Of a stretch of DNA of 22,955 bases, positions 1-14,406 are shown piece after piece. The notes under the pieces were generated by a model. The model saw nothing but the letters and a program-made list of their open reading frames with translations, made no database searches and had not been told where the DNA came from. The translations under genes and the position numbers were made by a program. Source of the DNA: a virus (lineage: Duplodnaviria > Heunggongvirae > Uroviricota > Caudoviricetes); the IMG/VR virus record IMGVR_UViG_2541047790_000011; one strand, given 5' to 3'. Within the stretch, counting starts at the first letter, position 1. Each line of letters starts with the position of its first letter.

Positions 1-1239
1 ATGAGCAGGGCAATTCATAGACTTAGCGACACTCTTTTACGAAAATTAAGCGGATCACCAACCACAAAAAGCACCTTTTTTAATGATGGTGGCAATCTTA
101 GCGTAAGGCATTCAATCAATGGCCTGTTAACCTGGTATTTCACTTACAGGGCCGGAACTGGTAGGCAGATATCACCGGAACGTCTGAGGCTGGGCAATTA
201 TCCCGATCTGAGCCTGAAAGCTGCCAGGGAAAAAGCGGCACAGTGTCGCGCCTGGCTGGCTGAGGGGAAAAATCCGCGCTATGAACTTAATCATGCTGTA
301 CAGGACGCGTTAGCCCCCGTGACGGTTAAGGAAGCGCTCACTTACTGGCTTGAATCGTACGCAAAGGAAAAGCGCACTGACTACGAATCACTGAAAAGCC
401 GGATCAATAAACACATAATTAGCCAGATTGGCGCTATGCCACTGGAAAAATGCGAGCTACGCCACTGGCTGGCCTGTTTTGACCAGCTTGCTAAGCGTAA
501 TCCGGTATCAGCCGGATTTTTGCTACAGGTATGCAAACAGGCGCTTAAGTACTGCCGAAAACGACGATACGCAATCAGCAACGTTCTTGATGATATGGTC
601 GTAGGTGATGTGGGGAAAAAAGCAGAAATAAGTGAGCGTGTACTGACAAACAAAGAGCTTGGAGAACTACTCCGCGCACTGGATGAAAAAATCTTCCCGC
701 CGTACTACAGCGCCCTAATTCGCCTCCTGATTGTTTTTGGATGCCGTACCACTGAGCTAAGGCGCTCTGAGGTGCAGGAGTGGGATTTTAAGGAAATGCT
801 CTGGACAGTACCGAAGGAGCACAGCAAAACGAAGGTCGCCATATTCAGACCAATACCGGAAAGCATTCTGCCGTTCGTCACGCAGCTGGTGGAGAAGAAC
901 AGGCACACGGGCTTATTGCTTGGAGAACTGAAAGGGCAATCATCCGTAGCAGAGTACGGAAGAACAGCGCACAGACGAATTAATCAAGCCCCCTGGACGT
1001 TACACGATATCCGGCACACATTTACAACCATGCTGAACGATTTAGGCGTGGATCCGCATATTGTCGAGCAGCTTACAGCCCACCAGATGCCAGGGATGCA
1101 ACGCGTCTATAACCACTCCCGTTATCTTGATGCAAAACGTGATGCTCTTAATCTATGGGTAGACCGTCTCGAGCTTCTCCAGAACAATGATGAAAAAGTC
1201 GTTGTTATGACCCCACGAATTTACACCCAAAATTCTTGA
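1..1239 (+). CDS. int: Tyrosine recombinase / phage integrase (P4-type)
   Basis: 412-aa ORF. C-terminal catalytic signature visible (LHDIRHTF ... VYNHSRYLD, matching the His-x-x-Arg and Tyr of tyrosine recombinases); N-terminus resembles P4-family integrase arm-binding domains. ORF begins at window base 1, so the attL side lies outside the window. Confidence 0.88.
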   Translation: MSRAIHRLSDTLLRKLSGSPTTKSTFFNDGGNLSVRHSINGLLTWYFTYRAGTGRQISPERLRLGNYPDLSLKAAREKAAQCRAWLAEGKNPRYELNHAVQDALAPVTVKEALTYWLESYAKEKRTDYESLKSRINKHIISQIGAMPLEKCELRHWLACFDQLAKRNPVSAGFLLQVCKQALKYCRKRRYAISNVLDDMVVGDVGKKAEISERVLTNKELGELLRALDEKIFPPYYSALIRLLIVFGCRTTELRRSEVQEWDFKEMLWTVPKEHSKTKVAIFRPIPESILPFVTQLVEKNRHTGLLLGELKGQSSVAEYGRTAHRRINQAPWTLHDIRHTFTTMLNDLGVDPHIVEQLTAHQMPGMQRVYNHSRYLDAKRDALNLWVDRLELLQNNDEKVVVMTPRIYTQNS

Positions 1240-1648
1240 CAAATTACGGCTGTTTTTTCTTTAAGAGATTACAGCCGTGAATAAAACGCTAAATATCGGT
1301 CAAGTTCGTTAATTTTTTATTTTTCAACCATCGAAAAAATTGAAATGCACCCTACTAAACCCTTATTAGCTATTTCTTGATTGTTCCAATACCTGATGGT
1401 TTATCTGTTTGTTTTTAATGAGATAATTCAAGCGTAATGCCAAATGACGACATTTTTTGTTGCGTCGCTTAAAAACTCGTGACACGATTTTAAACACTAA
1501 CGAGCTTCTACGAACCTTAGCGAACAAAGCCTTTAGCAAGGTTGTGTTTTTAATTTAAGAGGTGAAAAAGAATCTAAGTAATATCCGATCTCATATATCT
1601 ACAGCTAAGAGAAAAGTTTATATACGTAATTTTTATGTAGGTTTTTGT

Positions 1649-1858
1649 ATGCGTGAAATAAATGAAGATCGCGTAATCCGTGAGGATGAATGTCGTAAGT
1701 TAACTGGAGTGTGTCGCACTACACGCTACGAACTGGAGAAAAAAGGATGCTTTCCGTCACGTCTTAATCTGGGCGGTCGTTCTGTTGGTTGGCTGCTGTC
1801 CGAGGTTATGGAATGGGTTAAAAGCCGGGATCGCATTAATTCAGGTAAGGCAGCGTAA
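1649..1858 (+). CDS. alpA: AlpA-family excisionase / transcriptional regulator
   Basis: 70-aa product MREINEDRVIREDECRKLTGVCRTTRYELEKKGCFPSRLNLGGRSVGWLLSEVMEWV has the AlpA/Xis-like HTH pattern (TG-S--T-Y-L---G-FP----LG-R-VGW---EV-EW). Sits directly downstream of int as in P4-like elements. ORF track start at 1562 is a GTG abutting an AGAGG, so the internal ATG at 1649 was chosen. Confidence 0.7.
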   Translation: MREINEDRVIREDECRKLTGVCRTTRYELEKKGCFPSRLNLGGRSVGWLLSEVMEWVKSRDRINSGKAA

Positions 1859-1872
1859 AGGGGGAGTATATG

Positions 1873-1906
1873 GCACATAAAACAAAGGCGACCGGGGGCG
1901 GTCGCC
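1873..1906 (-). terminator. Rho-independent terminator for the leftward regulatory transcript
   Basis: Perfect 8-bp stem ggcgaccg (1887-1894) / cggtcgcc (1899-1906) with a 4-nt loop; on the minus strand it is followed by UUUGUUUUAU. No U-tract on the plus strand. Confidence 0.45.
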
Positions 1907-13190: not shown

Positions 13191-13480
13191 CGAGAATGAG
13201 CGAAACCGAACTACTAAAAATAATCCGCCGTGTTACCGGAGCCAGCCAGACAGCAGACAAACAGGAGGCCACGCAGCCGGACAGCGTGATAGCCGAAAAT
13301 TACGCGCGTGTGGTGGCTGAGGTGATGCGCCGTGACGGTATTGAGCTTAACGGCGTGGATATGCGCAACATACGAACCAGAGTCCTTGAGTTGCTGGCAT
13401 ACCGTCGCCGTTCTCAACAACGGAGGGAGAGCGCGAAAAATACTTATCAGTGGAAGAAGCCGGAACGGTTGCGGCGGTAA
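13187..13480 (+). CDS. Hypothetical protein
   Basis: 97-aa ORF whose start overlaps the terL stop (ATGA); last gene before the island boundary region. Confidence 0.45.
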   Translation: MTRMSETELLKIIRRVTGASQTADKQEATQPDSVIAENYARVVAEVMRRDGIELNGVDMRNIRTRVLELLAYRRRSQQRRESAKNTYQWKKPERLRR

Positions 13481-13593
13481 CTTGCAGATATTCCCGATAA
13501 CGTAAAATTGCGTTGGCTGGCAGAGTGCAAATTTGCACGATGGCCTAACCCATTGATTGTTTCGGAAACCTCAATTTGAGGAGGCCGGACAGC

Positions 13594-13628
13594 GTGACGG
13601 AGGGTGACAACCAGTGACACGCCGTGAC
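13594..13628 (+). repeat. Four GTGAC direct repeats at exact 10-bp spacing (candidate integrase arm-type or packaging-protein sites)
   Basis: GTGAC at 13594, 13604, 13614 and 13624, phased by one helical turn, in the non-coding stretch between the last satellite gene and clpS. Confidence 0.4.
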
Positions 13629-14406
13629 AAAAAGACGGTTTAACCATCCATTAAAAATCGACGTGATTTTGTGCTTTCCGTATGAGGTGGCCAGCGTCAT
13701 TTTTTAGTGAGAAATTCTGGTCAGGGGCGTTGGCTGAATGGTTATTTTATCGTGCCCATGCACAGGGAGGGGGCGGGTAAAATCTCTGGAGGTGATGCCT
13801 GTCAGGACCGCCGCCTGACCCTTCCTCACATCGCCGCAGGTTCGAAAACTTTTTTTGTGTCAGGTGCGCACGGAATTGATAGATAAAACCTATATTAAAA
13901 AATCACGGAAGCCGTGCCATTGCTGGAGCAGTCAAAAATTCCACATCTCACGGCAGGCAAAAAAAGCGAATTTTGGGCCAGTTGAGGATAAAAAAGGGCT
14001 CACTAGTTTTGCACATCCTGGTATCGGGGTCGTCAGCCTCCCGCCAGTAACTAGGTAACTAATCACGCTGGTGGGCATGATGCCGATGCCGGGATCTCGG
14101 TATCGGTTTATCTGTGATCATCCACCAGCTTGATGACAGATAACAGGGAGTCATAACGGTTAAAGCGTGTTGATCTTTGTTCGTGGTTGTTCGATATTGT
14201 TCGTAAAGCGGTGTAGTTAATGGTGTAGTTAATTTCGCTGTTTTTGACGAGCTTATCATTTGCAACGCAATGAAAAACAAAGACTAATTAACAAAATGCT
14301 ATAAATGATAGTTATCTATCATGTGGAGTAGATTGGTCAGGCAAATAAGCTCTTGTCAGCGGCAGGGCGTTCTGCCGATAACCGTAACCGAAGATGATAA
14401 CTGACA

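Follow-up and report, generated by a model that had tools for sequence, protein, structure and literature searches.

The stretch of DNA analysed here (22,955 nucleotides, IMG/VR virus record IMGVR_UViG_2541047790_000011; referred to hereafter as the window) very probably carries an integrated capsid-forming phage-inducible chromosomal island (cf-PICI) of Escherichia coli, about 14.5 kb in length, at the yljB/cspD-clpS intergenic site. Islands of this kind have already been described (Alqurainy et al., bioRxiv 10.1101/2022.09.08.507074); the window element is a new, uncharacterised member that adds nothing new at the level of the family. Its sole unusual trait relative to the members studied is that it has no head-completion ("adaptor") gene. 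cf-PICIs are abundant satellites that transfer DNA from strain to strain, and even across species, by means of their own capsids and borrowed tails.

Identity, ends and gene content of the element

Gene for gene, the element is collinear with EcCIEDL933, the prototype cf-PICI of E. coli O157:H7 EDL933 (positions 330-14761 of locus L002). Common to both is an order in which an integrase gene (int), alpA, Icd-like and other small genes, a DUF4222 gene, a replication gene, a hypothetical gene, a gene for a single-stranded DNA-binding protein (SSB) and a variable slot precede the genes for the capsid, protease, portal, connector, HNH endonuclease, a 1792-like protein, the small (TerS) and large (TerL) terminase subunits and a hypothetical protein of about 94 amino acids. 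This match to an experimentally proven island, together with precise attachment (att) ends and the size of the element, supports the capsid-forming, PICI-like satellite proposed in the initial annotation of this DNA, within a family that was already known, and confirms that islands of this type are recognisable from sequence alone. The features that define the element are as follows (window positions).

188-168 nucleotides upstream of position 1, outside the window: attL (alignment with the empty K-12 site)
1-1239, plus strand: tyrosine integrase of P4-type architecture, arm-binding N-terminal and catalytic domains (Pfam Phage_integrase 1e-18, Arm-DNA-bind_3 8e-16)
1649-1858, plus strand: AlpA, excisionase-like transcriptional regulator (Pfam Phage_AlpA 9e-16; phrog_2790)
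3300-5048, plus strand: replication initiator, D5-like SF3 helicase/P4-family primase C-terminal protein (Pfam D5_N, DUF5906, Pox_D5; NCBIfam TIGR01613 primase_Cterm)
5056-5292, no strand assigned: iteron cluster, probable replication origin (10 copies of CYTCTACC/GGTAGARG, both orientations)
5399-5650, plus strand: hypothetical protein, 5' of SSB (same gene order in EcCIEDL933)
5647-6072, plus strand: SSB (Pfam SSB 1.7e-16)
6089-6337, plus strand: hypothetical protein, 3' of SSB (same gene order in EcCIEDL933)
7165-8334, plus strand: HK97-fold major capsid protein, 389 amino acids (Pfam Phage_capsid 2e-71; TIGR01554)
8389-8949, plus strand: prohead maturation protease, S78 (Pfam Peptidase_S78 6e-46)
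8951-10165, plus strand: portal protein (Pfam Phage_portal 2e-92)
10158-10460, plus strand: gp6-like head-tail connector (Ad1 type), "connector-only" allele (Pfam Phage_connect_1; phrog_40 5e-29; TIGR01560)
10460-10900, plus strand: HNH endonuclease, terminase cofactor for cos cleavage (Pfam HNH 3e-9)
10884-11069, plus strand: small hypothetical protein, 61 amino acids, positional counterpart of EcCIEDL933 gene 1792 (phrog_3173)
11189-11545, plus strand: small terminase, P27 family (Pfam Terminase_4 1e-23; WP_000113645.1)
11529-13190, plus strand: large terminase, ATPase and nuclease domains (Pfam TerL_ATPase, TerL_nuclease)
13196-13480, plus strand: conserved hypothetical protein, 94 amino acids, after terL (phrog_1561; similar-sized gene at the same place in EcCIEDL933, L002 14480-14761)
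14300-14320, no strand assigned: attR core, right end of the element (three-way alignment)

Protein searches of each open reading frame recovered every gene that had been named initially, and within 1-13480 all of them are intact and score above the curated Pfam/NCBIfam cut-offs. The P4-type integrase and AlpA are thus both present and intact, as is the primase-helicase with its iteron origin: 10 matches to CYTCTACC, where 0.72 would be expected over the full window, all lie in 5063-5288, directly 3' of the primase gene. The group of genes at 5399-6337 matches phrog_1231 and phrog_1957. An integrase, an AlpA regulation module and a replication module therefore make up the left end, as is typical of cf-PICIs. 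The genes from the capsid gene to that of the 94-amino acid protein form one tight operon on the plus strand (7165-13480), which provides the element with its own capsid, protease and portal, a gp6-like connector and its own HNH, TerS and TerL in the proteobacterial gene order. The possibility, raised in the initial annotation, that the head genes might be frameshifted pseudogenes did not materialise: PGAP annotates all of them as intact in an identical region of E. coli SaT040, and ratios of nonsynonymous to synonymous substitution rates (dN/dS) of 0.03-0.19 across all head and packaging genes are indicative of purifying selection. The capsid-protease-portal-connector-HNH-terS-terL order is indeed inverted relative to HK97-like phages, as had been pointed out, but is not special to this element; it is the norm kept in proteobacterial cf-PICIs (Alqurainy et al.).

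The best match of the capsid protein in the Protein Data Bank (PDB) is a "Major head protein" of 385 amino acids (9gyi, E 7e-154), which is the length of the EcCIEDL933 capsid protein, and 9gyi is likely to be a cf-PICI capsid structure. Five residues that form salt bridges in the EcCIEDL933 capsid, and at which mutations abolished or lowered transfer (He et al., bioRxiv 10.1101/2025.02.11.637232), are all kept in the window capsid (D258, K291, D296, E320 and R351). We note that 9gyi is followed in the PDB list by gene transfer agent capsids of Rhodobacter capsulatus (6tb9 and 6tba, E ~1e-55), which rank above any phage capsid.

Positions 1-14000 of the window are 100% identical in SaT040 (NZ_CP014495.1) and in 15 further complete genomes, several of them O25:H4, and full-length, near-identical copies number 16 among complete E. 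coli genomes. In SaT040 the element lies among core E. coli genes, preceded by macA-macB-cspD-yljB and followed by clpS-clpA-tRNA-Ser, and is therefore not a truncated prophage. Its ends were set by a three-way alignment of the left junction, the right junction and the site of K-12 MG1655, which is empty and measures 98 bp from yljB to clpS. This comparison with an empty site, by which the initial annotation had proposed to locate the ends, revealed an imperfect att core of 21 bp, ATA[G/A]ATGATAGTTAT[C/T]TATCA, that overlaps the yljB stop codon. Position 1 of the window coincides with the ATG of int, and the attR core (ATAAATGATAGTTATCTATCA) restores the yljB-clpS intergenic sequence. From these two positions the element measures about 14.5 kb between the att repeats, within the size range of ~10-18 kb reported for cf-PICIs (He et al.); the extent of 1-13650 given at the outset was wrong at both ends, attL lying outside the window and the right end ~670 bp further on. 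The Pfam, PHROG and NCBIfam matches of all open reading frames include no tail, baseplate, holin or endolysin/lysis domain, and the element has no repressor module. That tail and lysis genes are absent thus holds within the element and also at its borders, where neither lysis genes nor a complete tail module are contiguous with it and the adjoining DNA consists of macB-cspD-yljB and clpS-clpA.

The connector-only cassette

In EcCIEDL933 and in the element of IAI39, a 112-amino acid "phage head closure protein" (PF05521, Phage_HCP), which corresponds to the "head-tail adaptor" of the cf-PICI papers, is encoded between the portal and the connector. In the window, the stop codon of the portal gene overlaps the start codon of the connector gene, so that a head-completion gene has no space there. 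When the window was searched in all six frames with a profile made from 11 closure proteins, nothing matched (best E 0.39); the same profile, applied as a control to locus L004, which holds a sister element from FELIX_MS724 inserted in a prophage, detected the closure gene of the satellite at 8e-44 and the prophage copy at 1e-34. A closure gene hidden elsewhere or persisting as a pseudogene was rejected on the basis of this profile search and of tblastn, which returned nothing in all six frames. The 94-amino acid gene after terL and the 61-amino acid gene after HNH have counterparts at the same positions in EcCIEDL933 and are therefore not replacements for the closure gene. Also rejected was a simple deletion of the closure gene from the sister element, since the alignment with L004 displays a cassette swap, from the last ~30 nucleotides of the portal gene to ~40 nucleotides before the connector stop codon, with a divergent connector allele and no scar. 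The HK97-type head and packaging set, which had been described as complete, is thus intact in all the genes that were named but lacks the head-completion gene between portal and connector.

The adaptor (PF05521) that is missing from the window element is a core component in SatelliteFinder and figures on the screening list of He et al. According to its description (de Sousa et al., NAR 2023, PMC10085698), SatelliteFinder recognises 11 core components and reports 969 cfPICIs, 459 of which are Type B elements with 10 of the 11 components, and many such variants are considered to be conserved and probably functional. By our own count the window element has 10 of the 11 components; it thus passes the quorum definition as Type B and falls outside the strict full-module list of He et al. 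The text of PMC10085698, as far as drawn upon, does not state which component is lacking in each Type B variant, and the parts of the cf-PICI literature searched yielded no statement on adaptor-less cf-PICIs.

Of 5,426 complete E. coli genomes, 143 contain sequence specific to the connector-only junction. A portal-connector-HNH segment of related type occurs in 534 of the 5,426 (~10%), those outside the connector-only group carrying the closure gene, and the connector-only share of E. coli elements of related type is therefore about a quarter (143/534). Connector-only elements occupy at least five sites: between yljB and clpS (window), between rcnR and thiM (L006), inside yifB (L022), between gcd and hpt (L024) and inside the terL gene of HK97-like prophages (L005, L023). 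Their integrases differ, their replication proteins are of three types (D5/primase, DUF927 and RepA helicase), and their capsid genes fall into two alleles with a nucleotide identity of only 70%. The occurrence of the same cassette at these sites on different integrase, replication and capsid backbones requires that the cassette, once formed, was transferred horizontally and recombined. Between connector-only elements, dN/dS amounts to 0.03 for the portal, 0.09 for the connector, 0.10 for the protease and 0.07 for terL.

A scan of other Gammaproteobacteria, at one genome per species, yielded 13 cf-PICI-like loci, in two of which the portal is directly followed by the connector: one in Erwinia psidii (L008, 2483-2803) and one in Gilliamella sp. 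App6-5 (L011, 2489-2788). The sister Gilliamella loci L009, L010 and L012 carry a head-closure gene. Since the connectors of the Erwinia and Gilliamella elements cluster by host with those of adaptor-bearing neighbours rather than with the connector-only allele of E. coli, loss of the closure gene, or failure to gain it, occurred on at least three independent occasions, and a single ancient connector-only clade was rejected for the same reason.

Taken as a whole, these observations argue against a dead end, while falling short of a proof of transfer, and the connector-only arrangement is most likely a viable variant. The closure proteins of cf-PICIs are phage-like, being 53% identical to that of an HK97-like prophage, whereas their connectors are island-specific and only 26-27% identical to the connector of the same prophage. 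Connector-only islands possibly either obtain both the tail and the head-completion protein from the helper or attach tails straight to the connector. We tentatively propose that the connector-only cassette represents a distinct and recurrent cf-PICI strategy that dispenses with an adaptor of its own, through recruitment of the closure protein of the helper or through direct docking. Were this the case, the choice of tail would be set by a protein of the helper rather than by an island adaptor, and the rules worked out on adaptor-bearing cf-PICIs, both for tail specificity and for how stable tail-less capsids are when free, would change. The adaptor and the connector are reported to determine together which tails fit (He et al.), yet the quarter or so of E. 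coli elements devoid of an adaptor appear mobile and selected; the cassette thereby poses a testable question as to the minimal head-side requirement for tail hijacking.

We also note that in loci L004 (1-16583), L005 (1-16241) and L023 (1-16238), cf-PICIs with and without an adaptor split the terL gene of an HK97-like prophage into N- and C-terminal pseudogene halves. The disrupted prophages encode compatible-looking head-closure and tail genes, and excision of the cf-PICI might restore prophage terL in these loci.

Proposed life cycle, rival explanations and neighbouring DNA

A number of repeats and intergenic regions of the element are suggestive of regulatory or recombination sites.

1500-1527, minus strand: two TTCG-type repeats (TTTGTTCGCT AAGGTTCGTA) upstream of alpA, with a TTGTTCG match at 1521-1527; possible AlpA site
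6945-6971, plus strand: three TTGTTCG-type repeats with a period of ~10 bp, directly 5' of the promoter-like site
6988-7015, plus strand: promoter-like site TTTACA-16-TATGTT upstream of the capsid operon
11070-11188, no strand assigned: HNH-terS intergenic region with a G-run (GGGGGTGGGGGTGG); candidate cos site (conservation and position)
14177-14233, plus strand: right-arm composite, three TTGTTCG (10-bp period) followed by two GGTGTAGTTAAT (repeat analysis)

Both arms of the element contain three to four TTGTTCG repeats with a 10-bp period followed by two copies of GGTGTAGTTAAT, the left arm being found at 9905-9985 of locus L001; in the right arm, GGTGTAGTYAAT has two matches against 0.14 expected. 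The same TTGTTCG-GGTGTAGTTAAT composite occurs in the arms of EcCIEDL933 (L002 240-310 and 15470-15540) despite a different att core, and, as in the window, a TTGTTC-type triple repeat lies directly upstream of its capsid gene (L002 7883-7912). The TTGTTCG part, without GGTGTAGTTAAT, recurs 5' of alpA and 5' of the capsid operon. From these positions we infer that TTGTTCG repeats are candidate AlpA sites and GGTGTAGTTAAT repeats candidate arm-type sites of the integrase (Int), and that 6945-7015 may serve as an AlpA-responsive promoter of the capsid-packaging operon. The presence of TTGTTCG in both arms, 5' of alpA and 5' of the capsid promoter fits a recombination directionality factor that also acts as an activator. 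The segment 10990-11200, which includes the HNH-terS intergenic region, displays 93% mean column identity among five elements including EcCIEDL933; the cos site would be expected between HNH and terS, near 11070-11188, as for other HNH-dependent terminases. As a separate observation, four to five degenerate copies of a ~30-nucleotide segment (GGCGCGGTAACTGGTTGATATTTTCG...) follow the last gene of EcCIEDL933 (L002 14750-15170); this segment matches the 3' end of the hypothetical gene after terL and is present in a single copy in the window (13470-13520). The copies in EcCIEDL933 may be relics of repeated right-arm recombination.

AlpA is the master activator of PICI induction, and EcCIEDL933 is induced by the helper phages HK106 and HK446 in an AlpA-dependent manner, forms small T=4 capsids of its own, packages only itself and needs the tail genes of the helper (Alqurainy et al.). 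Induction through helper and AlpA, island-made small capsids and dependence on helper tails have been demonstrated for EcCIEDL933, EcCIGN02175 and KpCIDSM30104 (bioRxiv 10.1101/2022.09.08.507074; 10.1101/2025.02.11.637232). By analogy, a helper phage would derepress or activate alpA in the window element, and AlpA and Int would excise the island, whose arms carry TTGTTCG and GGTGTAGTTAAT repeats, at the 21-bp att core. The D5/P4-type primase-helicase, assisted by SSB, would then replicate the island from the iteron origin just 3' of its own gene, while AlpA would probably also turn on the capsid-to-terL operon via the TTGTTCG repeats 5' of its promoter. The capsid protein, protease and portal of the island are predicted to build small HK97-fold capsids, into which HNH, TerS and TerL would cut and package unit-length island DNA from concatemers at the HNH-terS cos site. 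The gp6-like connector would finally cap or seal the portal, and a helper tail would complete the particle.

Several points weigh against so full an account. The helper, the induction, the capsid size and the transfer of the window element are taken from homology with EcCIEDL933, the assignment of TTGTTCG to AlpA and of GGTGTAGTTAAT to Int derives from position, and the placing of cos derives from the conserved HNH-terS region. The Pfam/NCBIfam matches of the replication protein comprise D5_N, an SF3 NTPase and the P4-primase C-terminal domain, and no canonical primase domain. Finally, all packaging-module genes of EcCIEDL933 except the hypothetical gene 1792 were required for transfer, and even the 1792 mutant displayed a severely reduced transfer (Alqurainy et al.), so that the absence of the adaptor could impair the formation of stable, tail-competent capsids. 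The suggestion in the initial annotation that the element builds its own capsids and needs only the tails of a helper accordingly stands as regards its cf-PICI identity, but "only the tails" is not shown.

This last point is the substance of a rival explanation that we regard as unlikely, namely that the element is a cf-PICI rendered defective by adaptor loss, which excises, replicates and fills capsids but makes no stable, tail-competent particles and is inherited vertically only. The lack of a PF05521-type gene in any frame and the requirements of EcCIEDL933 speak in its favour, and the 16 near-identical full-length copies, O25:H4 strains included, could reflect clonal inheritance. Set against this are the presence of the cassette in 143 of 5,426 genomes and at no fewer than five sites, on backbones that differ in integrase, replication module and capsid allele, dN/dS values of 0.03-0.10 for the portal, connector, protease and terL genes of connector-only elements, the clean swap for a distinct connector allele, and the existence of connector-only elements in Erwinia and Gilliamella whose connectors group with those of adaptor-bearing neighbours. 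We therefore favour a viable connector-only cf-PICI.

A decayed HK97-like prophage deprived of tail, lysis and immunity genes, rather than a satellite, is highly improbable. Head and packaging genes of HK97-type families and the want of a repressor or lysis module are what such a remnant would display; however, the att ends are intact and enclose the satellite gene set and nothing else, with core genes on either side, the int-alpA-primase module is of the PICI/P4 type and not lambdoid, and the capsid-protease-portal...hnh-terS-terL order is unlike that of the HK97-type prophages in L004 and L005. Moreover, the same content of ~14-15 kb recurs at many sites, and all genes are intact and subject to purifying selection. 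The most similar connectors of true phages show only 34-39% identity, and 22% is the most that any phage record covers of the element. Least probable of all is a classical, non-capsid-forming PICI of the EcCICFT073 type or a P4-like satellite that remodels the capsids of its helper: the int-alpA-primase left half is common to these satellites, but the window element has its own capsid, portal, connector and TerL, and in the classical PICI model of SatelliteFinder (PMC10085698) the portal, the head-tail connector and the adaptor are forbidden components. A P4-like satellite is further contradicted by the absence of Psu, Sid and Delta/Ogr domains from the Pfam and PHROG matches of any open reading frame in 1-14320.

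The remaining genes of the element are small genes of the left end and one accessory gene.

1921-2200, plus strand: Icd-like pseudogene fragment (PGAP, identical SaT040 region)
2202-2381, minus strand: YlcI/YnfO-like gene (PGAP, identical SaT040 region)
2575-2778, plus strand: Icd-like gene (PGAP; phrog_6196)
2771-2998, plus strand: small, conserved hypothetical protein, preceding the DUF4222 gene
3004-3303, plus strand: DUF4222 protein (Pfam DUF4222 5e-24)
6372-6878, minus strand: accessory gene, 168 amino acids, unknown function (phrog_5789 8.5e-85, also of unknown function), located in the variable slot 5' of the capsid operon

The pair formed by the gene at 2771-2998 and the DUF4222 gene is also located 5' of the replication gene in EcCIEDL933 and was found in loci L002-L006. 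An ATG-initiated open reading frame of 302 amino acids (1870-2778) was discarded as spurious; it spans the Icd-like pseudogene and the YlcI-like gene of the opposite strand and is not annotated by PGAP. Immune systems are expected by the authors of the cf-PICI studies in the variable slot 5' of the capsid operon (He et al.). The 168-amino acid protein encoded there, whose gene is also present in the sister element L004, had no Pfam or PADLOC match, and a known defence system in this slot was therefore rejected.

Beyond the element, a small island (17470-22030) adjoins tRNA-Ser(GGA) (17378-17465, minus strand) and is followed by an IS5 transposase gene (22032 to the end of the window). Its products are a Mor-family activator (19042-19569), a HicB-like antitoxin (20702-20893) and five further proteins whose function is unknown. 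The island gave no convincing PADLOC matches and is present over at least 80% of its length in only 23 of the 5,426 E. coli genomes. At ~17470-17830, 3' of tRNA-Ser, gene coordinates are shifted by +1 relative to the SaT040 annotation, an offset that implies a 1-bp insertion or deletion, so that the window may derive from a different one of the near-identical strains.

Comparison with known satellites and phages

A search of phage collections returned only short, cf-PICI-like "phage" records of ~75% identity and no close phage. With HK97-like phages, the window element has in common the HK97-fold capsid, the S78 protease, the portal, the gp6-like connector and HNH-assisted TerS/TerL cos packaging. 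In these phages (the prophages of L004 and L005; HK97, HK106), however, the genes are ordered terS-terL-portal-protease-capsid-connector-closure-tail and tail and lysis genes are present, whereas the element is about one third of their size and its connector is only 26% identical to that of the prophage.

Much closer is the FELIX_MS724 sister element (L004), whose nucleotide identity to the window reaches 98% for the capsid, 96% for the protease, 97% for the portal, 97% for HNH, 99% for terS and 97% for terL. It differs in having a head-closure gene and another connector allele (66% nucleotide identity), in its insertion in a prophage terL, in its integrase and in its replication protein, which is of the DUF927 type.

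The proteins of the window element are 77% (Int), 66% (AlpA), 64% (capsid), 61% (protease), 81% (portal), 56% (connector), 83% (HNH), 100% (TerS, same accession WP_000113645.1) and 95% (TerL) identical to those of EcCIEDL933. The replication protein of EcCIEDL933 (DUF927) is 68% identical to that of the window over its first 160 amino acids, and the remaining, C-terminal two thirds consist of an unrelated module; window 3300-3780 and L002 4039-4520 thus encode a common N-terminal domain of ~160 residues fused to interchangeable helicase/primase modules. EcCIEDL933 is integrated at roxA-phoQ rather than yljB-clpS, carries PerC and other accessory genes where the window element has the 168-amino acid minus-strand protein, encodes the 112-amino acid head-completion protein (PF05521) between portal and connector that the window element dispenses with, and measures 15.4 kb as opposed to 14.5 kb.

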